NCBI GenBank assembly: GCA_001872925.1
Contig: MNYD01000069.1
Coordinates: 1-29,141, forward strand
Length of the DNA: 29,141 nucleotides
Reading direction: 5' to 3'
DNA from: Dehalococcoidia bacterium CG2_30_46_19
GTDB lineage: Bacteria > Chloroflexota > Dehalococcoidia > GIF9 > AB-539-J10
In this document: piece after piece, positions 492 through 28,616 of the stretch
How the letters are laid out: the number at the start of each line of letters is the position of its first letter
How positions within the stretch are numbered: position 1 is the first letter of the stretch
Notes under the pieces: model-generated
The model's database searches: none
Told to the model about the DNA's origin: nothing
What the model saw: the letters and a program-made list of their open reading frames with translations, nothing else
Program-made: the position numbers and the translations under genes

Positions 492-911
492 TTATTCACC
501 CATAATCTGGAGCACTAACTCACGTGACCGGGGACGGTTATCGAAATCAATAAACACAATTTGCTGCCAGGTGCCCAGAGTTAACCTTTTACTTACAAAG
601 GGCACTGTTAGCGAAGCTCCAAGCATCGAAGCACGCACATGAGAATGCCCATTACCATCTTCCCATGTTTTGTTATGCTCATAAGGGATATTCTGGGGTA
701 CCACCCTATCCCACATTTTTTCGAAATCTTCGAGAAGCCGGGACTCATATTCAATAGTGGTGAGCCCTGCTGTTGAACCAGATATAAACAAGGTTACTGT
801 GCCATTACTTACTCCCGACTGCCTCACTTCGCCCGCTACCTGAGAGGTTATATCAATGATGTCGCAACTACCTTTAGTTTTAAATGTGATGCTTTTAGTG
901 ACTACAGTCAT
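492..911 (-). CDS. yjbQ: YjbQ / UPF0047 family protein (secondary thiamine-phosphate synthase-like)
   Basis: Motifs HNKTWEDGNGHSHVRASMLG and LGTWQQIVFIDFDNRPRSR. The likely start ATG at 911 overlaps the pyrK stop (ATGA). Confidence 0.9.
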   Translation of the reverse strand: MTVVTKSITFKTKGSCDIIDITSQVAGEVRQSGVSNGTVTLFISGSTAGLTTIEYESRLLEDFEKMWDRVVPQNIPYEHNKTWEDGNGHSHVRASMLGASLTVPFVSKRLTLGTWQQIVFIDFDNRPRSRELVLQIMGE

Positions 912-1885
912 ATTTTTACCTCCTGCCATAGAACATCGTTCATCTCAAACACCGGACCATCACGGCATACCTGTTTTAAGCCATGCTTGGTATTTATAGT
1001 GCAGCTACGACAAGCTCCGATGCCACATCCCATCCTCACCTCTAGGGAAATTTGGCAATTTCTTAGCTTAGATTCTTCGCTTCGCTCAGAATGACAAGTT
1101 AATAATTCCGCCATTGTCTTATACATATCCACAGGTCCACAAGCAAATACCTGGTCTGCCCAATCAAGGAAGTCAGGCAGGATATCGGTTACCATGCCCT
1201 TCCTGCCCAGAGTCCCGTCTTCGGTAACAGGGATGAATTGAACTCCGCTTGGTAAAGACAAGAGATTGCTTTGCTTTTCACCCTCTCCTTTTTCCTCTCC
1301 CTTCGAGGGAGAGGAATTAATGGTGAGGGGCAATGACAAAAAGGGATAAATCTGAGCAGCGGTGCTCGCTCCATGAATTAATGCTACCTGATATTGAGGC
1401 GAAGCATATTGAGCCAGGAAAATAAGCGGAGCAATGCCAATGCCTCCACCCACCAATAGCAGGTTTTTCAAACCAGGCACAATGTTAAATCCCTTACCCA
1501 GTGGTCCGAGGACGTCAATTTTATTGCCCGCCGGCTGCTGTGATAGCCAAAAGGTGCCCTTGCCTACTACCTGAAATAGAAGGGCAATCTCACCCTTACC
1601 AGTTCCTTCGCGGAGTTTACCCTGAGCACGATAAGATTCTTCGCTACGCTCAGAATGACAGCAAGCGAAGGGCTCAGGACTAGCCTCATCTCCCGTCGGG
1701 GGAGAGGACAAGGATGAAACCTGATGCACACTGAAAGGGCGACGCAATACCAATCCTTCACAGCATACCGTAATAAATTGCCCCGGCTGAGCCGAAGAAG
1801 CGATGTCAGGCGCATCAAGCCACATAAGATACACGCCTGGCATGACCTCCACATTAGAAGTTATCGCACACAAAGACTGCCTCAT
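908..1885 (-). CDS. pyrK: Dihydroorotate dehydrogenase electron transfer subunit, carrying three in-frame repeat insertions
   Basis: RRPFS (FAD), GGGIGIAP (NAD), and CGIGACRSC...VCRDGPVF (2Fe-2S). At 325 aa it is about 70 aa longer than the usual ~255 aa, which matches the total length of the inserts. Confidence 0.92.
   Translation of the reverse strand: MRQSLCAITSNVEVMPGVYLMWLDAPDIASSAQPGQFITVCCEGLVLRRPFSVHQVSSLSSPPTGDEASPEPFACCHSERSEESYRAQGKLREGTGKGEIALLFQVVGKGTFWLSQQPAGNKIDVLGPLGKGFNIVPGLKNLLLVGGGIGIAPLIFLAQYASPQYQVALIHGASTAAQIYPFLSLPLTINSSPSKGEEKGEGEKQSNLLSLPSGVQFIPVTEDGTLGRKGMVTDILPDFLDWADQVFACGPVDMYKTMAELLTCHSERSEESKLRNCQISLEVRMGCGIGACRSCTINTKHGLKQVCRDGPVFEMNDVLWQEVKI
1070..1096 (-). 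repeat. Family A core (27 bp) in frame in pyrK, encodes CHSERSEES
   Basis: Minus strand TGTCATTCTGAGCGAAGCGAAGAATCT. One mismatch each to 1634-1660 and 28555-28581. Confidence 0.95.
1262..1338 (-). repeat. Family A shell with a nested family B hairpin, in frame in pyrK (LSLPLTINSSPSKGEEKGEGEKQSNL)
   Basis: TGTCATTGC-[CCCTCACC..TTCCTCTCCCT-cga-AGGGAGAGGAA..GGAGAGGGTGA]-AAAGCAAAGCAATCTC. Perfect 11-bp stem at 1292-1316. Confidence 0.85.
1606..1710 (-). repeat. Composite B hairpin + A core + tail, in frame in pyrK (SSPPTGDEASPEPFACCHSERSEESYRAQGKLRE)
   Basis: CCTCTCCCCCGACGGGAGATGAGG, then TGTCATTCTGAGCGTAGCGAAGAATCT (1634-1660), then TGCTCAGGGTAAACTCCGCGAAG, which resembles the tail at 28586-28609. 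Confidence 0.9.
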
Positions 1886-1888
1886 GCT

Positions 1889-2020
1889 AAATCCTAAATT
1901 CGAATTCCTAAACTCTAAACAAATTCAAAATTTCAATGCTCTAAATTCAAAACCACTTCGGATCATTTGTATTTTGGGTTTTGATATTGTTTGGAATTTC
2001 GTGCTTTGGATTTCGGATTT
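1889..2020. repeat. Family C AT-rich imperfect inverted repeat built from AAATCC(G/T)AAAT-like units; overlaps the carB 3' end and abuts the pyrK start
   Basis: Left arm AAATCCTAAATTCGAATTCCTAAACTCTAAACAAATTCAAAAT. Right arm, reverse-complemented: AAATCCGAAATCCAAAGCACGAAATTCCAAACAATATCAAAAC. Confidence 0.7.
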
Positions 2021-5000
2021 CCCTTTAAGTATTCCCTCAGCGGCTGAACGCTAAAACTTTGACCGACACCACCCATCGCCTCCACAACTACACGGGCAGT
2101 ATCCAGCGAGGTAAAGCACGGTATCCTCTTTTCTACAGCAGCACGCCGGATATTAAATCCATCCTTCAAGGGAAGCCGACCTCCAGCGACAGTGTTAATA
2201 ACCCCAGCCACAGAATTATCCTGAATAACGTCAATAACGTTGGGATGCCCTTCACTTAATTTTTTGGTCACCATTTTTACCGGGAGACCCGCTGCTTCAA
2301 TCATAGCTGCAGTCCCTTCGGTGGCATAAAGTCCATATTGAAGCGAGTGCAACTTCTTGATTAAAGGCAGTGATTCAGCTTTATCCCTATCAGCAACGCT
2401 TAGCAACATCCCTCCCTTCTCAGGCAACATCAACCCGGCAGCCAAGAGTGCCTTGACCAAGGCAGCATCAAAGGTATAATCAACACCCATCACTTCACCG
2501 GTAGATTTCATCTCAGGTCCAAGATAATTATCCACCCCAATCAGCTTGGACATAGAGAAAACAGGAGCTTTTATACCCACTAACTTTTGCTTCTTCCCCA
2601 ACCCCCCGTTATAACCTTGCTCAGCAAGACTGATACCAGCCATCACTTTGACGGCAATTCGCACCAAGGGAACACCAGTTACCTTGGAGATAAAGGGCAC
2701 AGTTCTGCTAGCCCGGGGATTTACCTCAAAGACATATACTGAAGAACGCCCATTTTCCCTCATTATGAGCATCTGAACGTTCATCAAGCCTTTAACTTGC
2801 AAAGCAAGACCAATTCTGGTGGTGTAATCCACCATAGTGTTTACTTCCTCATCGGTTAAATTGACGCCGGGATAGATAGCCAAGGCATCACCACTATGCA
2901 CGCCAGCTCGCTCAATATGCTCCATTATGCCCGGGATAAGCACTTCCTTCCCATCACTAACAGCATCTACCTCAACCTCCTTGCCCTGCAAGTATTTATC
3001 GATAAGGACAGGATGCTGGCTATTGAGCTCTAAGGCCTCGGTTAGATAGCGAATCAGCTCAGTCTCATTATGCACGATTTCCATAGCTCGGCCACCGAGG
3101 ACATAGCTGGGGCGAATCAACAACGGATAACCCAAGGACCTAGCTACATTCAGTGCTTCTTCAATTGATGACACGCCAGCTCCCGGTGGCTGAGGAATAC
3201 CCAACATATCTAGAAAGTCTTCAAAACGACGACGGTCCTCAGCTATATCTATTGCTTCAGCACCGGAGCCCAGTATTGCTAAATTGCTGCGTGCCAATGG
3301 CTCAACCATGTTGATGGCTGTCTGACCGCCAAACTGAACGATGGAGGGTAGGACAGACTCACCTTCGTTTTCAACTATGTCTCGAATGCTTTCCTCATCC
3401 AGAGCTTCAAAGTAAAGACGGGTGCTGGTATCGAAATCGGTGGAAACTGTCTCTGGATTAGAATTAACCATGATGCTCTTTATACCCGCTTCCTGAAGCG
3501 CCCAGGCAGAGTGAACGCAGCAGTAATCAAATTCAATCCCCTGCCCGATCCGTATCGGGCCACTTCCAATAACTAAAGCTTTCCTGCCTTCCAGAGGCTC
3601 AGCTTCGTTTTCCTTCTCATAGGTGCTGTAGAAATAAGGAGTTTCAGCATCAAATTCGCCAGCGCAGGTATCCACCATCTTATATACCGGGCGGATATGC
3701 CATTCATGACGGGCTTGCCTCACCTGCTCAGGCAATCTATCAGCCAATGTGCCAACTTGCTCATCACTGAAACCAAGCCGCTTTGCCTCCCAGAGAAGCT
3801 CGGGAGTCAAAGGCTCAGAAAGAAGCCGCTTTTCCATGTCAACGATATTGTTTAGCTTATAGATAAACCAGGGGTCTACTCCAGTGCGCTGGGAAAGCTC
3901 TTCAGGTATAGCTTCCCTTCTCAGCGCTGCTATGATTGCCCAAATTCTCAAGTCATTGGGATGAAGTGGATAGGAATCAAGCCCTTTCCCCTGCTGCCAG
4001 CTGGAATCTTCCCAGAGAAGGGCCCTCTTACCAAACTCCAGAGAGCGCACGGCCTTCTGCAGGGCAGCTTCAAAGCATCTTCCAATAGCCATCACTTCGC
4101 CCGTGGCTTTCATCTGAGTGCCAACCTCTCTATCACCTGATGCAAATTTATCGAAAGGCCATCTTGGAATTTTAACCACGCAGTAATCGAGAGCAGGCTC
4201 AAAGGATGCCAACGTCTTGCCAGTAACCTTATTGGGTATTTCATCGAGCCTTCTTCCTATAGCTATTTTGGCCGCCACACGGGCAATGGGATAGCCAGTG
4301 GCTTTGCTGGCAAGGGCTGAGCTACGACTGACACGCGGGTTGACTTCAATCACATAATACTGACTTTTTTCTACCTTTATTTGGTCTGGAGCCCATTTTT
4401 CAGCAACTACAGGGTGAGGAGTAAGGGCAAATTGTATGTTACAGCCACCCTCAACACCCAAAGCCCGGATGATGTTAATGCTCGCCGACCTGAGCATCTG
4501 GTATTCCTTGTCAGTTAGCGTCTGGCTGGGAGCTACCACAATGCTGTCGCCAGTGTGCACCCCCATGGGGTCAATGTTTTCCATATTACAGATGGTAATA
4601 CAGTTATCGGCGGCATCACGCATAACTTCATATTCAATTTCCTTCCAGCCAAGGAGACATTGCTCCACCAGAACTTCATGACTCATGCTATTCTCCAGGC
4701 CATTGGCGACTACTTTCTCAAGCTTTCCCATGGTGTAAGCAACACCGCCCCCGGTGCCACCCAGAGTATAAGAAGGACGAACAATTAAGGGCAAGCCGAT
4801 GGATTCCGTCAGCTCCCTGGCCTCTTTTACCGATTTAACCGTGGCGCTCTGGGGCACGGGCTCACCAATATCAATAAGAAGCTGTTTAAATAACGACCTC
4901 TCCTCAGCCTTCTTTATCGTTTCCACTGGTGTCCCCAAAAGCCTTACTTTATATTTATCAAGCACACCAGCATCGGCCAACTCTACCGCAAGGTTAAGCC

Positions 5001-5274
5001 CTGTCTGCCCACCAATGGTGGGCAGCAATCCATCAGGACGCTCTCTCTCAATTACCCGGGCTAAGACTTCAACAGTAAGCGGCTCAATATAGACGATGTC
5101 GGCGATACCTTCGTCGGTCATAATGGTCGCCGGGTTTGAGTTCACCAGAACCGTGGTCACGCCTTCCTCCCGCAGCGCCCGGCATGCCTGAGTTCCGGAA
5201 TAATCGAACTCCGCCGCCTGCCCGATTATTATCGGACCCGAGCCAATGACCAGGACTTTAGATGGTTTGGACAC
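1963..5274 (-). CDS. carB: Carbamoyl-phosphate synthase large subunit
   Basis: [22 protein letters not shown], two ATP-grasp halves ([10 protein letters not shown] and [12 protein letters not shown]) and a C-terminal MGS domain. GTG start. Confidence 0.98.
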
Positions 5275-5283
5275 TCAATCTCC

Positions 5284-6102
5284 CTAACCCTTTACAGCCT
5301 TTATCAACCCAAAGGCGCGAAGTTCCTTAGCAACTTTAATGAAAGCTTTATCCATATTCTCTTCGGTGAAACGCTCCCAGACTTTCTCGTCAATGTTTGT
5401 AGGAAATTTAGTCTCCTCTTGTAACAAATAAATCATTTTGTCAGGAAGAATTTCTTGAGCTCTGCCAATTTCATTAAGAATATTGCCATGCGGAATAAAC
5501 TCACCTGTTTGACCATCAACGTCACCTTTGGTTGCCAGGATTATTGTGCAATCGCATTGCTTTAGATAATGCTCCACATTTTTATCTTTCGACCTTCCTT
5601 CGCTAGGTTGCTCCTCCACAATTATAGGAGTGATACCTAGCGCATTGAGAAAATTCACAAGTTTCTTGCGGGCAGGACTTTCCCCACCATGAGCAATAAA
5701 GGCTTTAGGTGGCTCTGTATCAATACCAGGTGGCTTTCCTATTACATTCCCTTGTTTATCTCGTATACCCTTATCAATATCGTCTTTTAATTTTCCAATG
5801 GTTCTGCTTGTTGCTTGTAAACAGTTATCAAGTGCACTCACAACGAGAGTGTTTTTTTCGAAATTAAAAGCCCAATTCCAAACATCCTGTAGGCCGGCGC
5901 TCGTTTTGATTGTCTCTAAACCTGTATATTCTTTAACTAATTGAGTATACTTTCCTGCGCTGATGCTGATTTCCTCGTATATTAATTCAAAATCCGCAAG
6001 TTCTTCTTTTGTTAATCCCTTATGTTGATTTATCTGTTTTGTTCGATAGGCGAGATATTGCATGAGTTTATCTCTAAAATCTTTTAATTCATCTACAATC
6101 AT
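5284..6102 (-). CDS. Predicted nucleotide-binding TIR-like domain protein (CAP12/Pycsar-effector-like TIR at the C-terminus, unknown helical N-terminus)
   Basis: C-terminal pattern KAFIAHG...LGITPIIVEEQPSEGRS...IILAT..D...HGNILNEIG...FPTN. Strong RBS GAAGGAGG. AT-rich relative to the flanking car genes. Confidence 0.75.
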   Translation of the reverse strand: MIVDELKDFRDKLMQYLAYRTKQINQHKGLTKEELADFELIYEEISISAGKYTQLVKEYTGLETIKTSAGLQDVWNWAFNFEKNTLVVSALDNCLQATSRTIGKLKDDIDKGIRDKQGNVIGKPPGIDTEPPKAFIAHGGESPARKKLVNFLNALGITPIIVEEQPSEGRSKDKNVEHYLKQCDCTIILATKGDVDGQTGEFIPHGNILNEIGRAQEILPDKMIYLLQEETKFPTNIDEKVWERFTEENMDKAFIKVAKELRAFGLIKAVKG

Positions 6103-6134
6103 CTCGCTTTACCTCCTTCAATATCAGCCACCTA

Positions 6135-6212
6135 CCTCACCCCCTTAGTCCCTCTCTCCTTCACAAGAGAGGGGAGGTTTGGAAAGAGGGATTCCGCCCC
6201 TCTAAAACTCCC
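6135..6212. repeat. Family B repeat, partial copy between carA and the TIR-like gene
   Basis: CCTCACCCCCTTAGTCCCTCTCTCCTTCACAAGAGAGGGGAG..AGAGGGATTCCGCCCCTCT..ACTCC aligns with the reverse complement of about 107-190. Confidence 0.8.
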
Positions 6213-6223
6213 TATATTCATCT

Positions 6224-7369
6224 CTACTTTCCCTTCACCATCTCCAGAAATCTCTCAAACAAATACCTGTTGTCCAACGGCCCGGGGGAAGCTTCGGAGT
6301 GGTATTGAATTGATAGTATGGGCAAGTCCCGGTGGCGGAGACCCTCCACGGTGCCATCGTTTAGGTTTATGTGGCTTACCTCAAGCCCTCCCTTTAAGGT
6401 ATCGGCATCTATGGCATAGCCATGATTCTGAGCAGTGATATAAACCCTGCCAGTTGCTAAATCCCGCACTGGATGGTTACCACCACGGTGCCCGAACTTT
6501 AGCTTAAATGTCTTTGCCCCTAAGGCTCTGCCGATAAGCTGATGTCCCAGGCATATTCCCATAATCGGTTTTTTGCCTATGAGCTTTTTCACCGTCTCCG
6601 TTATATCATCAAGAAGAGCAGGATCGCCGGGACCGGGGGAAAGGAGGATGCCATCGGGATTCATCTCTAATACATCCTCTGCTGAGGTAGTGCAAGGGAT
6701 AGCGGTCACCTGGCAACCAAATTGGCTTAAGATACGCAATATGTTGTATTTCAGGCCATAGTCAATAACCACAATTCGCAGATTGCTTCGCTCCGCTCGC
6801 AATGACAAAAAGGAAGCGGGCAATGACAGAAAAGGCAGGTTTGCAGTGACAGATGTATCGGATTGCCATTCATAGGGCTTCTCAGTGCTGACCTGGTGAA
6901 CAAAATCGGTAGAGTCATACCGGGGTAAATTCTTCAGCTCCTTTAATGCTTCTTCAGCAGTCATCTCTGAGGTAATAATCCCCATCATAGTTCCCAGCGA
7001 ACGTATATGGCGAGTTAAGGCACGAGTATCTATCCCGCTGATTCCTGGAATGCCGTTATCCTGCAGAAACTTATGTAAGGTAATTGTGCTCTGCCAATGG
7101 CTTGGACGAGAGCAATACTCCCGAACGGCAAATCCCCTAACCTGAATTTGCTTCGATTCGAAATCGGATTCATTGATGCCATAGTTCCCAATCATGGGAT
7201 AAGTAGGCACTAGAATTTGTCCGTCATAAGATGGGTCAGTGAGCATCTCCTGATAGCCGGTCATGCTGGTATTGAAAACGACCTCGCCATAGGCATTATC
7301 CTCAGCACCGAAGGCATCCCCTTCGTAAACCGAGCCATCCTCAAGAACTAAAATTGCCTTCTTAGCCAT
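6224..7369 (-). CDS. carA: Carbamoyl-phosphate synthase small subunit, with an in-frame repeat insertion
   Basis: GEVVFNTSMTGYQE, LSPGPGDP, GICLGHQ (catalytic Cys) and QYHSEASPGP. The likely start is ATG 7369 (MAKKAILVLEDG); the ORF track extends to GTG 7378. Confidence 0.97.
   Translation of the reverse strand: MAKKAILVLEDGSVYEGDAFGAEDNAYGEVVFNTSMTGYQEMLTDPSYDGQILVPTYPMIGNYGINESDFESKQIQVRGFAVREYCSRPSHWQSTITLHKFLQDNGIPGISGIDTRALTRHIRSLGTMMGIITSEMTAEEALKELKNLPRYDSTDFVHQVSTEKPYEWQSDTSVTANLPFLSLPASFLSLRAERSNLRIVVIDYGLKYNILRILSQFGCQVTAIPCTTSAEDVLEMNPDGILLSPGPGDPALLDDITETVKKLIGKKPIMGICLGHQLIGRALGAKTFKLKFGHRGGNHPVRDLATGRVYITAQNHGYAIDADTLKGGLEVSHINLNDGTVEGLRHRDLPILSIQYHSEASPGPLDNRYLFERFLEMVKGK
6780..6850 (-). 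repeat. Family A stacked repeat in frame in carA (VTANLPFLSLPASFLSLRAERSNL)
   Basis: GTCACTGC..TGTCATTGCCC..TGTCATTGCGAGCGGAGCGAAGCAATCT. The 28-bp core at 6780-6807 is identical to 7905-7932. Confidence 0.92.
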
Positions 7370-7370
7370 C

Positions 7371-7423
7371 ACCCTCACCTTAATCCTCTCCCGTCAAGGG
7401 AGAGGAAATTTGGGCATAATGAC
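7371..7423 (-). repeat. A-prefix plus family B hairpin forming the pyrC C-terminus and stop and the carA translation initiation region
   Basis: GTCATTATGCCCAAATT-TCCTCTCCC-ttgac-GGGAGAGGA-TTAAGGTGAGGGT. Closely similar to the intergenic copy at 28487-28526. Confidence 0.85.
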
Positions 7424-8780
7424 TTCCTAAGAAATCATCCATATAAACTACCTCGCCATCGACTATGGTCGCCATTACCTTGCCTTTAAACTTACAGCCA
7501 TCGAAAGGAGTATTCTTCCCTTTAGAAGCAAATTTGCTGCTGTCCACAACCCATTCCCGGTCTGGGTCAAATATAGTGATATTAGCCGGAGAGCCTACCT
7601 TCAACATGCCTAATTCGCCGCCTTTGCCAACTATCCTTGCTGGCTCACAGGTTAGCTTGGAAATCAAGGTAACTAAACCTATCTCCCCTTTATGAACCAG
7701 GCCCATAAGAGCGCCAAAAGCGGTCTCAAACCCGCTAATGCCGAAGGCAGCCATTTCCAGGCCACAATCCTTATCCGCCAGAGTATGCGGGGCATGGTCA
7801 GTGGCAATAGCATCAAGCACCCCATTTTTTAATCCTTCTATCAAGCAAGTTATGTCATCCTCAGTGCGCAAAGGCGGGTTTACCTTGGCATTAGTATCAT
7901 ATTGAGATTGCTTCGCTCCGCTCGCAATGACATTGTTGCCTTTGCCCCAGTCCTTGCCCATTATCCTTTCCTCAGTCAATGTTAAATGGTGAGGAGTAAC
8001 CTCAGCAGTTACCAAAATTCCTTCTTCCTTAGCACGACGTATAAGCTCAACAGAGCCACAAGTACTTACATGGGCAATATGAATCCTGGCATTAGCTAGC
8101 TTCGCCAGAGCCAGGTCACGGGCTACTATCATTTCCTCTGCACTCGCTGGAATTCCCCGAAGGCCCAACTTTGTAGACACCCAACCTTCATTTACAACAC
8201 CACCGTTACTCAGCCTTCTATCCTCACAATGGTCAACAATCGGCAAGCCAAGGGCGCAGCTATACTCAAGAGCACGATGCATAACTTGTGAACTAACCAC
8301 TGGAGCACCATCATCACTGAAAGCAACTACTCCAGCCTCAGCCAGTTCAGCCATATCGCAGACTTCCTTTCCACTTCTCCCTTTAGTGACACAACCTATA
8401 GGAAAGACATGAACAATGCCCTCTTCGGCAGCTTTTTGTTTCACCCACTCCACCATAGCTCGATTATCAATAGGTGGATTTGTGTTTGCCATGCAACAGA
8501 CGGCAACAAAGCCACCCGCAGCGGCTGCCTTTGTCCCTGTAGCGATTGTCTCCTTCTCCTCAAATCCCGGCTCACGAAGATGGCAATGAAGGTCTATGAA
8601 GCCAGGACAAACGGCCCACCCCGTGGCATCGATTACCAGAGGTTGCTTCGCTGCGCTCACAATGACAATTGGTATCCCCTTCCCCAATTGTGTGATTTTG
8701 CCTTCATCAATAACCAAATCGGCAACCTGGTTCATACCCCGGCCAGGGTCAATTAAGTTCCCATTCTTAATCAGTATCAT
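7380..8780 (-). CDS. pyrC: Dihydroorotase (type I, multifunctional-complex type), with repeat insertions
   Basis: PGFIDLHCHLREPG, FSDDG, DHCED, HIAHVS, EVTPHHL, KVNPPLR, ATDHAPH, SKGKNTPF. Confidence 0.96.
   Translation of the reverse strand: MILIKNGNLIDPGRGMNQVADLVIDEGKITQLGKGIPIVIVSAAKQPLVIDATGWAVCPGFIDLHCHLREPGFEEKETIATGTKAAAAGGFVAVCCMANTNPPIDNRAMVEWVKQKAAEEGIVHVFPIGCVTKGRSGKEVCDMAELAEAGVVAFSDDGAPVVSSQVMHRALEYSCALGLPIVDHCEDRRLSNGGVVNEGWVSTKLGLRGIPASAEEMIVARDLALAKLANARIHIAHVSTCGSVELIRRAKEEGILVTAEVTPHHLTLTEERIMGKDWGKGNNVIASGAKQSQYDTNAKVNPPLRTEDDITCLIEGLKNGVLDAIATDHAPHTLADKDCGLEMAAFGISGFETAFGALMGLVHKGEIGLVTLISKLTCEPARIVGKGGELGMLKVGSPANITIFDPDREWVVDSSKFASKGKNTPFDGCKFKGKVMATIVDGEVVYMDDFLGSHYAQISSPLTGED
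7905..7932 (-). repeat. Family A core (28 bp) in frame in pyrC, encodes VIASGAKQS
   Basis: TGTCATTGCGAGCGGAGCGAAGCAATCT. Identical to the carA copy but read in a different frame. Confidence 0.95.
8640..8667 (-). repeat. Family A core (28 bp) in frame in pyrC, encodes VIVSAAKQP
   Basis: TGTCATTGTGAGCGCAGCGAAGCAACCT, three mismatches to 7905-7932. Confidence 0.9.
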
Positions 8781-8784
8781 CTCG

Positions 8785-10179
8785 TTACCTTTGCTGCGCT
8801 TTCGCTGAAGGACGAAAGCCTCTCTCCTGTGCTTTCTCTTCGGAATCGAAAAAAACGCTGTTAGAGACTTTGATTTGCCCGGCCCGAATATCTTGACACG
8901 CGTAATATATCCTGGATTTTAAATTGCCGACGTAGTTGGGCTGCTTTTCATAGTCGCAATACACACATCTGAGGGTTAAAGGCTTGTTACCACAAACAAC
9001 GAATTCAGGAGCTATATAGCGAGCTTCATGAACAGATACGCAGGCGGGATTTTCACACCTACTACCTAAATCGCTGCGGTAGATTTCAGGCTGAGTGACT
9101 ACCTCAGGTAATGTTCTTTCTGCAGGAGCCTCCGCTTGCTGCATGCCAAGCAACAAAGCTATCAACGCCATCCTCACTGCTACCCCATGGGCTGCTTGTT
9201 CGAAATACATACTTCTCGGGTCAGCATCAATTTCGCATGCTATCTCGTCAAGTCGAGGTAGCGGATGTAAAACAAGTGCCCGCTTGAGCTCTTTCCTTTT
9301 AAGAACACCCTTATCCACAACAGGGTAAGCTTTTCTGGTATCTCCCTGGGCATCAGAAAATCTCTCCTGTTGAAGCCTTGTCATGTAGAGAGCATCCACC
9401 CCTTTCAAGTCAACTTCAGCACGGAGGTCAGGTATCAACGCCAGGTCATGGGAGGTCCCTGGTGTAACATAAATGGCATCCAGGGTAGCACTCGCTTTGC
9501 CACTACCTCCCAAGGCTAAAGCCACCGAGGATAAATTACGACCTGTAGGTCTTCTAAGCACCCCGTTATATTCCGTGGTCAGCTTTCTAAGGACATACTC
9601 CGGTGGACCAAGACCGGGGCTAGAGTAAAACACGATAGTTGCTCCAAATCTAGCTAACATATATGCCAGGGAATGTGTTGTTCTTCCATATTTCAAATCC
9701 CCGCAAAGCGCAATAGTCAATCCTTTAATCTTCCCCCTTGCTTTCTTAATGGTATAGATGTCGCATAAGGTCTGCGTGGGGTGCTCATGACTGCCATCCC
9801 CAGCATTTATTACGGGAACACCAGCATATTCAGCAGCCACTCTGGCAGCCCCTTCCCAGGGATGCCTGATAACAATTATATCGGCATATTTCCCAACCAC
9901 TCTGGCCATGTCAGCGATGCTCTCGCCTTTAGACAACGAAGTTGTCTTAGTATCCACAGCACCGATGACACTGCCACCGAGCCTTTGCATGGCAGCTTCA
10001 AAAGATAATCGAGTTCTCGTGCTGGGTTCGAAAAATAGACTTGCCAGAATTTTACCCTGGCATAAATCTAACTTGCTCCCTTTACTATCCCGCATCTTAT
10101 TCGCCAAAGAAAGGATACCTTCTACCTCACCGTTAGATACATCATTTATGCTTACCAAACTTCTGCCTGCTAGACTCAT
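8785..10179 (-). CDS. pyrB: Aspartate carbamoyltransferase catalytic chain with C-terminal PyrI-like Zn domain and Ada-like domain
   Basis: FFEPSTRTRLSFE, HPTQTL, GDLKYGRT and HPLP. C-terminal CENPAC...LRCVYCD and FFDSEEKAQERGFRP. 464 aa against about 310 aa for a typical PyrB. Confidence 0.92.
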   Translation of the reverse strand: MSLAGRSLVSINDVSNGEVEGILSLANKMRDSKGSKLDLCQGKILASLFFEPSTRTRLSFEAAMQRLGGSVIGAVDTKTTSLSKGESIADMARVVGKYADIIVIRHPWEGAARVAAEYAGVPVINAGDGSHEHPTQTLCDIYTIKKARGKIKGLTIALCGDLKYGRTTHSLAYMLARFGATIVFYSSPGLGPPEYVLRKLTTEYNGVLRRPTGRNLSSVALALGGSGKASATLDAIYVTPGTSHDLALIPDLRAEVDLKGVDALYMTRLQQERFSDAQGDTRKAYPVVDKGVLKRKELKRALVLHPLPRLDEIACEIDADPRSMYFEQAAHGVAVRMALIALLLGMQQAEAPAERTLPEVVTQPEIYRSDLGSRCENPACVSVHEARYIAPEFVVCGNKPLTLRCVYCDYEKQPNYVGNLKSRIYYACQDIRAGQIKVSNSVFFDSEEKAQERGFRPSAKAQQR

Positions 10180-11002: not shown

Positions 11003-12205
11003 ATGGATTTCCCCTTAATTCCTTCGGGCACAGTTACTTCGGTGCCAGGATTTCTCGCTGGTGCAATCCATGCTGGAATAAAGGAAAAAGACGAACCTGA
11101 CCTCGCCATCCTTTATTCCAAGATGCCCTGTGTTGCTGCTGGCGTTTTCACCACCAACCTGATTAAATCAGCCCCGGTCACCCTATCCCAAAGACACCTA
11201 ACACAAAGAACGGCAAGGGCAATCGTGGTAAATTCAGGCTGTGCCAACGCTTGCCTTGGAGAACAAGGGGCAAAGGATGCTGCAGAAATGGCAAGACTAA
11301 CTGCAGAAAAGTTAGGCATACCTTCCGAGGAAATACTTGTAGCCAGCACGGGCGTGATTGGAAAGCCACTGCCTATGAGCCAGCTCAGAAACGGGTTCCC
11401 GAAAGTAAAGCTCCGTCAAGATGGCGGTCATGAACTAGCCAGAGCAATGATGACCACAGATACTATGCCCAAGGAAATAGCACTTAAAGTTGAGACAAAA
11501 GAAGGTAAGTTTACCCTCGCCGGGGTAGCTAAAGGCGCAGGCATGATACATCCTGAATTAGCCACCTTGCTTTGCTTCATAACCACCGATGCTGCGATAG
11601 ATGCTGATTTCTTGCAACAATCATTAAAGAAAGCGGTTGATGTTTCCTTTAACATGCTCAGCATTGACGGCGAAACCAGTCCTAGCGACTGTGTATTTTT
11701 GTTAGCTAATGGCTTGGCAAGAAATACTGGAATTAGCTTCAATAACGGCGAGGCTTTTCAAAACGCTCTAGGTGAAGTTTGCACTTATTTAGCTAAATCA
11801 ATAGCTCAAGATGGTGAAGGAGCAACCAGGCTCATTGAAGTTACTGTGGAAGGAGCGGTAAATCAAACCGATGCACGCCAGGCAGCCCGGACCATTGTTG
11901 GCGCTCCCCTGGTGAAAACAGCGATACACGGCAGTGACCCTAATTGGGGACGCATTGCTGCTGCCGTGGGGCGAAGCGGAGCAAAGGTGACGGAAGGCAA
12001 ACTGGACATCTATCTGAACGATATATGTGTTATGAAGCAAGGTCGCCCAATACCATTTGACCAAGATGAGTTGCGTGCATCTTTGGCAACAGCTAACAAA
12101 GTGCCTATCAAGGTGTATCTTAACCTAGGCGACGGCAGAGCCACTGCTTGGGGCTGTGACCTATCTGAAGAATATGTTAGGATAAATAGCGAGTATACTA
12201 CTTGA
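11003..12205 (+). CDS. argJ: Bifunctional ornithine acetyltransferase / N-acetylglutamate synthase
   Basis: VNSGCANAC, ASTGVIG, MTTDT, KGAGMIHPELAT (autoproteolytic Thr retained), [33 protein letters not shown]. Confidence 0.97.
   Translation: MDFPLIPSGTVTSVPGFLAGAIHAGIKEKDEPDLAILYSKMPCVAAGVFTTNLIKSAPVTLSQRHLTQRTARAIVVNSGCANACLGEQGAKDAAEMARLTAEKLGIPSEEILVASTGVIGKPLPMSQLRNGFPKVKLRQDGGHELARAMMTTDTMPKEIALKVETKEGKFTLAGVAKGAGMIHPELATLLCFITTDAAIDADFLQQSLKKAVDVSFNMLSIDGETSPSDCVFLLANGLARNTGISFNNGEAFQNALGEVCTYLAKSIAQDGEGATRLIEVTVEGAVNQTDARQAARTIVGAPLVKTAIHGSDPNWGRIAAAVGRSGAKVTEGKLDIYLNDICVMKQGRPIPFDQDELRASLATANKVPIKVYLNLGDGRATAWGCDLSEEYVRINSEYTT
12139..12192 (+). repeat. 54-bp perfect direct repeat, copy 1 (inside the argJ 3' end)
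   Basis: AGCCACTGCTTGGGGCTGTGACCTATCTGAAGAATATGTTAGGATAAATAGCGA, identical to 12730-12783. Confidence 0.97.
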
Positions 12206-12674: not shown

Positions 12675-12796
12675 CCCACGCAAAGCTGCAACATATTCAT
12701 CAAACTAGACCTAGATTTAGAGATAATAAAGCCACTGCTTGGGGCTGTGACCTATCTGAAGAATATGTTAGGATAAATAGCGAATATACAACGTAA
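12675..12796 (+). pseudogene. argJ: Displaced second argJ 3' end (about 40 codons, one -1 frameshift), containing direct repeat copy 2 (12730-12783)
   Basis: Translates as [10 protein letters not shown](G)[24 protein letters not shown] against [36 protein letters not shown] in argJ. Confidence 0.85.
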
Positions 12797-23754: not shown

Positions 23755-23774
23755 AAATTTGGAGGTTATTTATT

Positions 23775-23902
23775 TGTCATTGCGAGGAGCGTAGCGGTTG
23801 CGAGTCGTAGCCGAAGCAAACTGGAGCATGAGATTCCTCGTTTCACTCGGAACAAGCTCCGCAATCTGGAAAGGAGATTGCCACGCTTCGCTCGCAATGA
23901 CA
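23775..23902. mobile_element. Family A MITE-like element, two-armed copy (128 bp) with 12-bp perfect terminal inverted repeats
   Basis: TGTCATTGCGAG ... CTCGCAATGACA, with an internal reversed half-copy AGATTCCTCGTTTCACTCGGAAC (23831-23853). No target-site duplication is evident. Confidence 0.85.
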
Positions 23903-24285
23903 GAGGGGAGTTGCTAAACAATAAAATTTTTGAAGTATGCCATGGTTATCGAGGAGGACGCATCGGCAAGACACAAGCTTTCCTGGGTGATTTACTCAAG
24001 GTAAATCCTATTCTGGGAATAAAGAATGGAGACACCTTTCCTATTGCCCGAGTTCGTAGTCGAGCACAAGCTATAGACTTTCTGGTAAATTTCGCTAAAA
24101 GCTTCAAAAAGGTAGAGGCTTTGGCTATTGAAGACGTTACTACCTCAAACGAGCTGGAAATACTGGGCCAGCGTCTCCAGGGACTGGTGCCCCAAGAACG
24201 TTTCTATCGCTCAAAGGTAAGCCCGGTAGTTGGCACACATGTTGGTCCCCATGTCTTAAGTGTCTCTGCCCTAGAAGGAGAATAA
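23878..24285 (+). pseudogene. degV: DegV (FakB-like) C-terminal fragment; the 5' part is missing and replaced by repeat DNA
   Basis: GGRIGK...LLKVNPIL.IK.G...P.ARVRS and SPVVGTHVGP. Only about 110 of the usual ~280 aa are present. The apparent TTG start lies inside the repeat. Confidence 0.8.
23903..23922. repeat. Family B terminus remnant
   Basis: GTTGCTAAACAAT (23910-23922) is a 13-bp exact match to the reverse complement of 54-66, and is preceded by a G-run as in that copy. Confidence 0.55.
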
Positions 24286-24288
24286 GGT

Positions 24289-26781
24289 TTGGGACAGCCC
24301 CCCAAAGAAACGAGCATAAACTCACTCCGAAGAGTCCTGGAATTAGAATGTAACAAGAGATATTCCGATAAAGCGGTAATCGGAGGATTGGATAAGTTCC
24401 TCCGAAACCAAGAAGGCAAAGTCTTACAGGGCATAGATAACCGAGAACTTTTAATGAGCTTTAATAATCTGGGGTTAGCTAAATCTAATTACAGTTCCTG
24501 GGATGTAAACAAACGTGAACAGTGGATAGCAACTATACTGGAATGGATAGGCAAAGTAGAAGAAGCAAGGGAGAAGAAAAAGTTAACCACACCAGCACTG
24601 GGTAGACCCCCCACGGTTGGTAAAACACGCCAGATCGAGAAAGTATCTCCCGAACTGGATTCACCAATAACCTTAATCAGAGGTATCACACCTAACACAG
24701 CCACTAAATTTGCCAAGCTTGGCGTAAAAACCCTGTATGATTTACTTTACTTCCTTCCTCGTCGTTATATCGATTACAGCCAGAGAAAAGCCATCGCTGA
24801 ACTCGAAGAAGGTAAAGAACAAACCATTATAGCAACGATATGGCAATCCAAAGTGGTCACTCTGGGTAATCGACAGGGCACAGAGACAATTGTCGGCGAT
24901 GAAACGGGTAATATCCGGGTAGTGTGGTTTAATCAACCTTATCTGGCAAAGAACTTTCGTACTAATGCCAGGATAGCAATTAGCGGGATAGTTAGCTCAT
25001 TTAAGGGACAACGGGTTTTTGAGTCTCCAGAATGGGAACTCATCCAGACCAAGGAACTAATCCATACCGCTCGATTAGTCCCCATTTACCCGTTAACTTC
25101 CGGTTTATATCCTCGCCAGGTAAGGAAATGGACAAAGGAGGCTGTAGATAGTTGGGCATGGCAGCTTGTTGAGTTCCTACCCTCAGAAATAAAGAAACGA
25201 TGTCAACTTCTAGATTTGTCTCAAGCAATTACCCAGGCTCATTACCCTGACAATCACCGAGTAGCAGAGGAAGCAAGAAAACGTTTAGCCTTTGATGAAT
25301 TGTTTCTACTTCAATTGGGTCTACTGGCAAGAAAGCAAAATTGGCAGGAAGGTCAGCCCGGCAATGCTTTTAATATCAACCAAGTGCTACTTAAAAAGTT
25401 CTTAAGTTATCTACCATTTACTTTAACGCATGCCCAACAGCGAGTGCTCAGCGAGGTCTTGCTTGACCTCAAACAACCAAAAGCTATGTCGCGGCTTCTC
25501 CAAGGAGAAGTAGGCAGTGGCAAAACTATAATTGCTACTCTAGCGTTACTAATTGCCGGCGATAATGGATACCAAGGGGCACTCATGGCCCCTACCGAAG
25601 TCCTCGCAGAGCAACATTTCGACAACATTTGTAACTATTTAGCCAAAGCTAGCACACAACCCCAGCCATCATTACAACCCCGTATTAAATACGGGGACAG
25701 CAATGTTCGCTGCTATGGTGGTATTCTTTCGCAACCAATCACCATTGCCTTGCTTATCGGCAGCCTTAGCGAAAGTGAAAAGGAAGAGCTGCATAATAAA
25801 ATCAGACAGCACAAAATTGACATTGTCATCGGCACTCACGCTCTCATCCAGGAAGAGGTAGAATTCCCCAAGCTAGGACTAGCGGTGATAGATGAACAAC
25901 AACGCTTCGGCGTTTTGCAACGCTCAGCATTGCGGCAAAAAGGATTCAACCCACATATGCTAGTTATGACCGCTACACCCATCCCGAGAACCATGGCATT
26001 GACTATTTATGGAGACCTTGACCTTTCTATTATTGACGAATTGCCTCCGGGACGGGCAATCGCTAAAACAAAATGGCTTGAACCACAATACCGAGGAAAG
26101 GCTTATTCCTTCATCCACCGCCAAATAAATAAAGGAAAACAAGCTTTTATCATTTACCCCTTGATTGAAGAATCGGAAGTAGTGGAAGCAAAAGCAGCTA
26201 CCACAGGATATGAGTGGCTAAGCAAGGAGGTTTTTCCGAGCTTCAAACTGGGGCTGTTGCATGGGCGAATGCCTGCTGCCGAGAAAGAACAAGTGATGCG
26301 ACGCTTCCGCAATAGAGAACTTGATATCCTGGTATCAACCTCAGTGGTTGAAGTTGGCATTGATGTGCCTAATGCTAACGTCATATTAATAGAAGGTGCC
26401 GACCGATTCGGACTGTCCCAGCTTCACCAATTTCGGGGGAGAGTAGGTCGTGATAAAGAACAAGGCTACTGCCTGCTCATCCCTGAAAGAAGCTCACCTG
26501 AAGCAAAAGAGCGCCTTGAGTTAATGGAAAAAATTCAAGATGGCTTCAAACTAGCCGAGGAAGACCTGAAGCTGCGAGGGCCAGGAGAATTCTTTGGCAC
26601 ACAACAAAGTGGCTTGCCTGAACTCAAAATAGCTAGTATAACAAACATGCAACTTCTGGAGACAGCGCGGCAGGAAGCAACCTCCTTGTTCAAAAATAAT
26701 CCCGATGCAGTGAAAGATAGAGACTCTCCCCTTGGTGAGAAATTAAGCCGAGTATGGCAAGGAAATATTGAATGGAGCTAA
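24289..26781 (+). CDS. recG: ATP-dependent DNA helicase RecG
   Basis: RLAFDELF, LLQGEVGSGKT, MAPTEVLAEQH, DEQQRFG, MTATPIPRT, QLHQFRGRVGR, DLKLRGPGE. Confidence 0.97.
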   Translation: MGQPPKETSINSLRRVLELECNKRYSDKAVIGGLDKFLRNQEGKVLQGIDNRELLMSFNNLGLAKSNYSSWDVNKREQWIATILEWIGKVEEAREKKKLTTPALGRPPTVGKTRQIEKVSPELDSPITLIRGITPNTATKFAKLGVKTLYDLLYFLPRRYIDYSQRKAIAELEEGKEQTIIATIWQSKVVTLGNRQGTETIVGDETGNIRVVWFNQPYLAKNFRTNARIAISGIVSSFKGQRVFESPEWELIQTKELIHTARLVPIYPLTSGLYPRQVRKWTKEAVDSWAWQLVEFLPSEIKKRCQLLDLSQAITQAHYPDNHRVAEEARKRLAFDELFLLQLGLLARKQNWQEGQPGNAFNINQVLLKKFLSYLPFTLTHAQQRVLSEVLLDLKQPKAMSRLLQGEVGSGKTIIATLALLIAGDNGYQGALMAPTEVLAEQHFDNICNYLAKASTQPQPSLQPRIKYGDSNVRCYGGILSQPITIALLIGSLSESEKEELHNKIRQHKIDIVIGTHALIQEEVEFPKLGLAVIDEQQRFGVLQRSALRQKGFNPHMLVMTATPIPRTMALTIYGDLDLSIIDELPPGRAIAKTKWLEPQYRGKAYSFIHRQINKGKQAFIIYPLIEESEVVEAKAATTGYEWLSKEVFPSFKLGLLHGRMPAAEKEQVMRRFRNRELDILVSTSVVEVGIDVPNANVILIEGADRFGLSQLHQFRGRVGRDKEQGYCLLIPERSSPEAKERLELMEKIQDGFKLAEEDLKLRGPGEFFGTQQSGLPELKIASITNMQLLETARQEATSLFKNNPDAVKDRDSPLGEKLSRVWQGNIEWS
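25667..25706 (+). repeat. Degenerate family A shell around a perfect palindrome, in frame in recG (PSLQPRIKYGDSNV)
   Basis: CATCATTACAA-[CCCCGTATT-a-AATACGGGG]-ACAGCAATGT. The SL...SN frame is the same as in the carA and pyrK inserts. It lies in an extra segment between helicase motifs Ia and Ib. Confidence 0.6.
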
Positions 26782-28486: not shown

Positions 28487-28526
28487 TCCCCTCTCCCTTG
28501 ACAGGAGAGAGCTAGGGTGAGGGTGA
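28487..28526 (+). repeat. Family B hairpin repeat
   Basis: TCCCCTCTCCCTTGACAGGAGAGAGCTAGGGTGAGGGTGA, similar to the minus strand of 7370-7406. Confidence 0.8.
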
Positions 28527-28531
28527 AAGAG

Positions 28532-28616
28532 GTCATTGCGAGCGCTCCGCCTCCTGTCATTCTGAGCGGAGCGAAGAATCTCAAGATGCTCAGGACAGGC
28601 TCCGCGAAGCAATCTC
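28532..28616 (+). repeat. Family A nested composite (outer GTCATTGCGAGCG...CGCGAAGCAATCTC, inner 27-bp core at 28555-28581)
   Basis: Inner core TGTCATTCTGAGCGGAGCGAAGAATCT, with tail TGCTCAGGACAGGCTCCGCGAAG. Confidence 0.92.

Follow-up and report, generated by a model that had tools for sequence, protein, structure and literature searches.

Introduction

Tagged repetitive extragenic palindromic sequences (REPs) were defined by Di Nocera, De Gregorio and Rocco in 2013 as hairpins carrying a CGTC tag, often TGTC, followed by an A-T-starting stem, a short loop and a short tail, with no dedicated transposase and with hosts in five phyla (BMC Genomics 14:522, PMC3733652). This super-family includes Neisseria dRS3 and the Rickettsia conorii elements RPE-4 and RPE-6, and its catalogued in-frame copies encode the peptides VIPAKAGI, SFPRKRES and DSRFRGND, one such copy lying in a dihydroorotase (PMC3733652). 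The Rickettsia palindromic element RPE-1 is an in-frame palindromic insertion of about 100–150 bp, which the accounts in PMC10969869 and PMC3733652, following Ogata et al. 2000, present as limited to Rickettsia. More recently, SsnA of Neisseria meningitidis and its homologues were characterized as small GIY-YIG site-specific single-stranded DNA endonucleases, whose genes (~95 aa, single-domain) are bracketed by NTS/Ssn-related motifs in an architecture like that of an insertion sequence, the authors themselves noting the parallel with REPs and the REP-associated tyrosine transposases (RAYTs); the Ssn/NTS pair modulates transformation in Neisseria, and that work shows cleavage and an effect on transformation, not transposition (Nat Commun 2025;16:2388, PMC11893778). 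Here we describe family A, a short tagged hairpin repeat found in a 29,141-nt stretch of DNA (the window; contig MNYD01000069.1) of Dehalococcoidia bacterium CG2_30_46_19, which is contig C6 of a 1.23-Mb, 160-contig, 88%-complete metagenome-assembled genome (MAG; G000 below, its relatives being numbered likewise).

We consider it highly probable that family A is a selfish or neutral repeat, persisting within genes only as in-frame, stop-free and tolerated loops. We observed the repeat family itself, its depletion from genes, its in-frame copies, empty and nested sites in relatives, and the linkage of a nuclease gene to the repeat. An earlier note on the window, made from the sequence alone, had taken the repeats for an independent system of coding MITEs (miniature transposable elements with inverted repeats), and what became of its claims is told with the results that bear on them.

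Build and Genome-Wide Distribution of the Repeat

Family A units begin with a 5' TGTC (sometimes CGTC) tag, followed by an A-T-starting stem, a short loop and a conserved 3' tail, CT(C); the TGTC form is found in nearly all copies of this genome, and CGTC in some copies of G000, G003, G013 and G032. In the 27-nt form the stem, AT...AT, comprises five Watson-Crick pairs, two G-A mismatches and two GC pairs closing a 3-nt GNA loop, and the 33–34-nt forms have 5+2+5 stem positions and a 4-nt loop. The variants of the stem change in step (ATTCT/AGAAT, ATTGC/GCAAT, ACCCT/AGGGT and others), and we rely on this covariation as the evidence for a hairpin because folding energy is uninformative for a unit of 27 nt. 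The window contains the core motif GAGCGNAGCGAAG six times, where 0.12 occurrences would be expected, and the short units number 73 genome-wide at six or fewer mismatches, against 0–1 in shuffled genomes. When a shell is defined as the tag, a 5-nt stem, GAG, and then the perfectly complementary stem, the genome holds 134 shells, of which 69 are solo, 31 enclose a longer inner hairpin and 34 are nested.

The repeat is strongly depleted from genes, given that 104 of these 134 copies are intergenic in a genome of which about 85% is coding by a crude call of open reading frames (ORFs); the intragenic share is about 12–17%. The genome-wide search proposed in the earlier note also yields at least 16 Pfam-verified internal in-frame copies across 13 genes, with two each in PyrK and PyrC and one each in CarA, SecA, PheT, a HisC-like aminotransferase, Mfd, ThiE-ThiD2, IspH, NadC and a LeuC-like aconitase-family protein, besides one each, in antisense, in a methyltransferase and a XerC/D-like recombinase. 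Other copies supply the C-terminal tails of proteins such as HisD and a HemN-like one. No gene split by the repeat was found, all five of the sampled tight same-strand spacers with a unit separating complete and different genes. Internal copies read in the sense direction in 13 of 14 cases by crude gene calls and in 8 of 9 in the Pfam-verified set then available (p about 0.07), and intergenic units show no orientation bias relative to transcription (10 co-oriented versus 14).

Five of the six frames of the unit are free of stop codons, three of them sense and two antisense. The figure of (1/3)^7 that the earlier note had calculated for the chance of all its inserts keeping their frames is therefore invalid as an argument, since insertions that break the frame of essential genes are lost and the number reflects survivorship and not a property of the element.

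Outside this genome, the A unit was found in 33 of 41 related Dehalococcoidia/Dehalococcoidales MAGs, at 0–49 copies each, with no match to a reversed control pattern. MAGs and isolates with the exact 27-mer of the window come from at least 12 phyla, namely Chloroflexota, Pseudomonadota, Thermodesulfobacteriota, Cyanobacteriota, Bacteroidota, Planctomycetota, Spirochaetota, Nitrospirota, Bacillota, Patescibacteria, Calditrichota and a Fibrobacterota-like group. In one Anaerolineae MAG (locus L160, 1826–2031), six exact 27-mers stand on one strand at a spacing of about 34–37 nt, as a tandem array.

In-Frame Copies in the Pyrimidine Operon

In the window, five full A units of 27–28 nt lie in frame in pyrK, carA and pyrC, all on the minus (coding) strand, and three family members lie between genes, as the earlier note had described for these three genes and the spacers. 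The pyrK units (1070–1096 and 1634–1660) are both read as CHSERSEES, the carA unit (6780–6807) as LSLRAERSNL, and the pyrC units (7905–7932 and 8640–8667) as VIASGAKQS and VIVSAAKQP. Since the carA unit and the pyrC unit at 7905–7932 are identical DNA read in different frames as unrelated peptides, it is indeed the DNA, rather than the peptide, that is conserved. The intergenic copies comprise two units (23876–23902 and 28555–28581) and a long-loop member of the 34-nt form on the minus strand (271–306).

A second palindrome, family B, has an 8–11-bp stem, CCTCTCCC/GGGAGAGG, and flanks of the GGTGAGGGTGA type; 38 such hairpins were found genome-wide and none in shuffles. Three of them lie on the minus strand within the same operon, at 1293–1315 and 1686–1708 in pyrK and at 7384–7406 in the pyrC tail, and this settles the content of the "seven internal inserts" of the earlier note, which, recounted, are five A units plus these three family B hairpins. 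The pyrC element as a whole (7369–7423) gives the last pyrC residues (...ISSPLTGED) and the stop codon directly before the start of carA; in other genomes this tail is of A type or missing. Family B is a separate, abundant palindrome, often nested within A shells, with further window positions at 151–191, 6134–6174, 7369–7407 and 28490–28526. An intergenic composite of a B hairpin and an A unit on the plus strand (28487–28616) is the free counterpart of the insert at pyrK site 1, the two being 81% complementary over 73 nt (1603–1675 in pyrK). The degenerate copy that had been suspected in recG (24289–26781) was not recovered: no match appears there at up to nine mismatches, a threshold at which shuffled sequence already yields 6–11 matches in the window, and the RecG protein has no repeat-type peptide.

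Pfam searches support PyrK, CarA, PyrC, a PyrB-PyrI fusion and RecG in the window, and the pyrK, carA and pyrC ORFs are all open with their Pfam domains and conserved motifs retained. The pyrK gene (908–1885, minus strand; dihydroorotate dehydrogenase electron-transfer subunit, Pfam DHODB_Fe-S_bind) encodes 325 aa, some 70 of them derived from repeats at three sites; its orthologues measure 258–339 aa, and the alignment breaks at those three sites. Site 1 (1589–1717) is the B hairpin of 1686–1708 broken by a triple nest, made of an outer A-like unit, then an inverted CCC-type unit, then the TCT unit at 1634–1660. Site 2 (1262–1338) is an A-unit shell whose left and right arms surround a family B element with a perfect 11-bp stem at 1293–1315 (folding z = -3.7), and site 3 is the solo TCT-variant unit at 1070–1096, which places its CHSERSEES just before the 2Fe-2S cysteines; all three are on the minus strand.

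The carA gene (6224–7378, minus strand; glutamine amidotransferase subunit of carbamoyl-phosphate synthase) has its insert in the linker between the Pfam domains CPSase_sm_chain (10–135) and GATase (203–379), where a half unit (6818–6835) and the full GC-variant A unit make up a minus-strand insert at 6780–6840. In pyrC (7380–8780, minus strand; dihydroorotase of 466 aa with Pfam Amidohydro_1 and DHOase), site 2 is the GC-variant unit at 7905–7932 and site 1 the unit at 8640–8667, which carries two mismatches.

Empty, Solo and Nested Sites in Relatives

Orthologues of PyrK, PyrC and CarA from 20–24 genomes were aligned and the state of each site was read from codon-threaded DNA alignments, which bring out three insert sites in PyrK, the same number in PyrC (the tail and two loops) and the inter-domain linker of CarA. 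In other families of the order, short native loops, that is, empty sites, stand at these positions; within the repeat-bearing family, the content of one and the same site differs between genomes, those of the same genus included. The search for empty alleles that the earlier note had called for returned empty, polymorphic and nested states in all three proteins, and the resulting orthologue series, nesting included, is unusually clear.

The clearest succession of states is that of pyrK site 1, which is empty in G013, G018, G024 and G023, holds a solo unit in G016, the B hairpin only in G002 and G006, and the B hairpin with the outer A-like unit in G007 and G011, while in G000 the loop of that unit contains a further 57 nt, consisting of the inverted CCC-type unit with the TCT unit in its own loop. 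At site 2 the same outer arms enclose nothing extra in G004 (a solo unit), another unit in G007 and G006, the B element in G000 and G002, and three nested units in G011, and the site is empty in G024 and in more distant genomes. Site 3 is occupied in the congener G002 by a GC-variant unit in another frame and is empty in G024, G028, G030 and G033. In PyrC, site 2 has further units nested in the loop in G001, a decayed copy in G012, and nothing in G026, G030 and G010; the site 1 unit is also present in G003, G004 and G005, and the congeners G001 and G002 carry another short sequence there. In the repeat-bearing family the CarA linker exceeds its counterparts in the order's other families by 20–45 aa, and the repeats it contains vary by genome.

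Judging from these alignments, the occupied sites are partly old and are re-targeted or remodeled, which explains why the same loops recur. In-frame copies common to different genera are 78–89% conserved, compared with about 50% at third codon positions (n = 18–27 nt).

Predicted Structure and Assembly Support

In an AlphaFold2 model of PyrK based on a 19-sequence alignment, the core blocks have a predicted local distance difference test score (pLDDT) of 85–92, and the inserts at residues 60–95 and 182–209 fall below 50 with no secondary structure, so these two large inserts are predicted to be disordered loops; the third insert, of nine residues, is placed in a short helix-loop before the iron-sulfur domain. 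Together with the alignments of PyrK, CarA and PyrC, this model upholds the claim that in-frame copies add loops to core enzymes, and the expectation that they would map to loops on a predicted structure.

That the inserts could be an artefact, the repeats having been wrongly joined into genes of a fragmented MAG during assembly or binning, was also a concern of the earlier note. The pyrK 1-kb stretch is complete in at least 23 groundwater or aquifer runs, which may include the source samples of the MAG and so confirm the assembly, not the organism independently. Independent Logan assemblies of four of these runs reproduce the window sequence with no difference, and single Logan contigs bridge the 1634–1660 copy, the B hairpins and the 8641–8667 copy; contigs end within the three exact 27-mers, a behavior to be expected of 31-mer graphs, and have consistent overlaps on both sides.

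A Candidate Partner Nuclease

The earlier note had suggested looking for a nuclease or HUH transposase gene flanked by the repeat, and the nuclease was found, not the transposase. While the flanks of intergenic copies were being checked, a small single-domain GIY-YIG gene (Pfam) came to light on contig C114 of G000 (721–1191), with an A unit 14 nt upstream of it and, downstream, an inverted unit as well as repeat modules. Small GIY-YIG loci of relatives carry units in 5 of 16 cases, compared with none of 14 UvrC control loci, and in G021 (L252) and G032 (L258) repeated doublets of the unit flank the gene. Of 120 loci taken from other phyla solely for holding the exact unit, three (L135, L174 and L231) contain a small GIY-YIG gene with units on both sides, one of which directly adjoins the ORF in each case (at 12 nt, at 5 nt and with an overlap). 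The C114 protein matches PDB 1ZG2 (a UPF0213 protein) weakly; an NCBIfam search gave it no name, and an exact look-up of two homologues in a protein collection returned nothing. On this genomic linkage, the partner enzyme is likely a small single-domain GIY-YIG nuclease of the Ssn kind, which we put forward as a candidate.

An HUH or RAYT transposase was rejected as the mover, being absent from G000 and unlinked to the repeat in relatives: no Y1_Tnp/RAYT match was found in G000, 7 of 41 relatives have matches with no relation to repeat load, and no unit lies within 1.5 kb of any of the eight Y1 loci that were fetched from relatives. As a separate observation, a second small GIY-YIG gene of G000 (contig C152, 5814–6002; L247 about 1480–1700) sits exactly between the 10-bp inverted repeats CCCAGCACTT and AAGTGCTGGG, as if in a hairpin loop, and is not flanked by full A units.

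Other Features of the Window

The spacer between FakA and DegV holds an intergenic cluster of A-family units (23767–23919, no strand assigned) that the corresponding spacer of the congener G001 does not have. Downstream of it, the DegV-family gene at 23940–24285 (plus strand) keeps its start and its last 112 residues and is without 495 nt (165 codons) present in G001; damage by the repeat was rejected as the cause of this truncation, which is a separate in-frame internal deletion, the repeat cluster being in the upstream spacer. The short gene could be a pseudogene or a shortened paralogue, or could reflect a collapse in the assembly.

Within the pyrimidine operon, between carB and carA, a 272-aa ORF (5284–6102, minus strand) has a CAP12/Pycsar-type TIR effector domain, and the family B repeat of 6134–6174 lies just upstream of it. 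The gene at 8785–10179 (minus strand; 464 aa) is an aspartate carbamoyltransferase catalytic chain fused to a PyrI-type zinc domain with an extra C-terminal region. Elsewhere, a 63-nt direct repeat (12139–12201 and 12730–12792; 97% identity, 591 nt apart) lies about the end of a 400-aa ORF (11003–12205) and the next small ORF.

Origin and Spread of the Repeat

Most likely, family A has multiplied as selfish or neutral DNA to some 130 copies, mostly intergenic, and its history would run as follows. A small GIY-YIG nuclease of the Ssn kind may move the repeat, template switching between hairpins being the alternative spreader; new copies would often land in the loop of a resident hairpin, so that occupied sites grow by nesting; and copies in genes would persist only where they are a multiple of three bases long, stop-free, and placed in a permissive surface loop, a domain linker or a terminus, to be translated as short disordered peptides and carried as presumably neutral passengers. 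The same DNA gives different peptides in different genes because copies survive in any open frame. A stronger version, in which the loop of a resident hairpin is the preferred target of new units and these enter it in alternating orientation, as the nest at pyrK site 1 might suggest, and in which a tolerated in-frame copy thereby becomes a point of stepwise loop growth, is one that we offer tentatively and hold to be somewhat doubtful.

Of the other explanations, a spread without any dedicated enzyme, in which dispersed hairpins undergo template switching or gene conversion with one another as DNA is replicated or repaired, would account for the PyrK, PyrC and CarA sites that keep their outer arms with interiors differing between genomes, for the different unit variants of two congeners at pyrK site 3, for copies that stay near the consensus while genes diverge, and for the repeat-rich genomes that have no small GIY-YIG gene. 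We nevertheless regard it as unlikely, because it leaves unexplained the first arrival at empty sites, the conserved one-sided tag and the recurrent bracketing of the nuclease gene in several phyla, and a gene missing from incomplete MAGs counts for little. Classical REPs and REPINs moved by a RAYT (HUH-Y1, IS200/IS605-type) transposase are likewise hairpin repeats of similar size, dispersed and often clustered, but the tag here is TGTC/CGTC and not GTAG, and the distribution of Y1 genes given above, lacking in G000 and without link to load or units in relatives, leaves this rival largely refuted and, in our estimate, extremely improbable. An assembly or binning artefact has practically no chance of being the cause: the MAG does consist of 160 contigs, and short-read assemblers do break at these repeats, but the pyrK stretch is complete in all those runs, the independent contigs bridge several inserts, and many other MAGs carry orthologous inserts at these sites.

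The in-frame copies might also be kept because they are useful, either as nuclease targets that limit the replacement of core genes by incoming single-stranded DNA, a role proposed for NTS in Neisseria, or as functional loops. The role of Ssn/NTS in Neisseria transformation, the five verified copies in a single pyrimidine operon, the better conservation of shared copies than of synonymous sites and the mostly sense reading of internal copies in crude calls all speak for such a use, which we still judge very unlikely, given that the sites are empty in many relatives whose enzymes are fully conserved, that their content varies between close genomes, that the loops are predicted to be disordered, that the host genes are unrelated, and that the orientation bias is not significant in the verified set and has no intergenic counterpart. 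Two hints of constraint remain, namely the conservation of shared copies and the mostly sense orientation of internal ones, and the former could mean that some constraint, and not pure neutrality, acts on them.

Besides this conservation, several other points weigh against a selfish or neutral mobile repeat. No movement was seen directly, and no target-site duplication is visible at the compared junctions, where the divergence of the empty alleles limits the comparison. The 27-nt unit folds no better than shuffles under standard DNA parameters (z about 0). The published degenerate Ssn-related motif (SRM) matches none of four A-unit variants and does match a Neisseria NTS control, and its six matches in G000 are no enrichment over the 2–6 found in shuffles. 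The assemblies of G002, G004 and G013 are repeat-rich and contain no small GIY-YIG gene, an absence that is weak evidence in incomplete MAGs. Finally, translation of the inserts as short peptides is predicted from the open frames, and no RNA runs holding the pyrK locus were listed.

A selfish or neutral repeat held in genes as tolerated loops would carry the range of translated hairpin repeats beyond intracellular parasites, to a groundwater lineage that is free-living and has a small genome, and in which at least 1% of the genes of this genome carry inserts, SecA, PheT, Mfd, IspH and three pyrimidine enzymes among them. The orthologue series from empty through solo to nested sites offers a natural experiment on how enzymes tolerate loops and how repeats grow. 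If the stronger version is true and an Ssn-like nuclease does drive it, this would be the first evidence of mobile Ssn-type repeats and would supply a defined mechanism for loop expansion in core enzymes. The Ssn-related motif published for searches overlooks a variant of the repeat that is widespread and has a link to a small GIY-YIG nuclease gene of the Ssn kind. As regards annotation, spurious small ORFs and inflated protein lengths arise from the repeats in many MAGs.

Comparison with Known Repeat Systems

Searches of the literature for the A unit or its peptides as text strings, and for Dehalococcoidia together with REP, found nothing. Family A is nevertheless neither lineage-specific nor undescribed in kind, because the build of tagged REPs is known and the exact 27-mer occurs in at least 12 phyla; the claim of an independent, much shorter and undescribed system has to be given up, all the more as RPE-4 and RPE-6 are equally short. 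As to the MITE label, the unit is itself a palindrome, and the compared junctions show no duplication within the limits set by divergent empty alleles.

The tagged REPs share with family A the one-sided CGTC/TGTC tag, the lack of a RAYT and a load of tens to hundreds of copies in several phyla, as well as, in broad outline, an A-T-starting stem, a short loop and a short tail. Frame by frame, their peptides VIPAKAGI, SFPRKRES and DSRFRGND correspond to VIASGAKQS, SLRAERSN and LRSARND here, and the intragenic copies of both are read in three sense frames and the antisense frame alike. The two differ in that the survey does not list Chloroflexota among its five host phyla (PMC3733652); going by the survey's general description, tagged REPs have a stem of 8–9 bp, a loop of 4–5 nt and a consensus tail of CCA, whereas the 27-nt unit has a 5-bp stem, two G-A mismatches, a 2-bp GC clamp, a 3-nt GNA loop and the tail CTC. 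In the survey, moreover, head-to-head dimers predominate, while nesting in loops is prominent here.

Such nesting has a parallel in the small dispersed repeats (SDR) of the cyanobacterium Nostoc, reportedly the subject of a 2008 Genome Research article by Elhai and colleagues and said to be mobile-looking hairpins of 21–27 nt that often lie inside their own copies. Their sequences and their cyanobacterial host set them apart from family A, and we know of no report of a tag-plus-nuclease association for them.

With the NTS/Ssn system, family A has in common tagged, oriented hairpins with copies in the hundreds, a wide spread over phyla and a small GIY-YIG gene bracketed by the repeat, and it differs in its intragenic share, which is 2% for NTS in N. 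meningitidis (PMC11893778) against the 12–17% found here. With RPE-1, as presented in the accounts cited at the outset, it shares the character of selfish palindromic DNA lying in frame in unrelated housekeeping genes, giving surface peptides and having empty sites in relatives, and our alignments likewise place in-frame insertions in functional ORFs whose orthologues elsewhere are uninterrupted. The analogy with Rickettsia drawn in the earlier note is accordingly a sound one, in that the copies lie in frame in intact core enzymes with empty sites in relatives, even though RPE-1 is described as an element of about 100–150 bp in an intracellular parasite, whereas here the unit measures 27–28 nt and reaches some 130 nt only through nesting, in a free-living groundwater anaerobe with a small genome. 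In summary, the translated hairpin repeats of this genome are a new member of a kind of selfish DNA that was already known, in a host lineage that is new for it.

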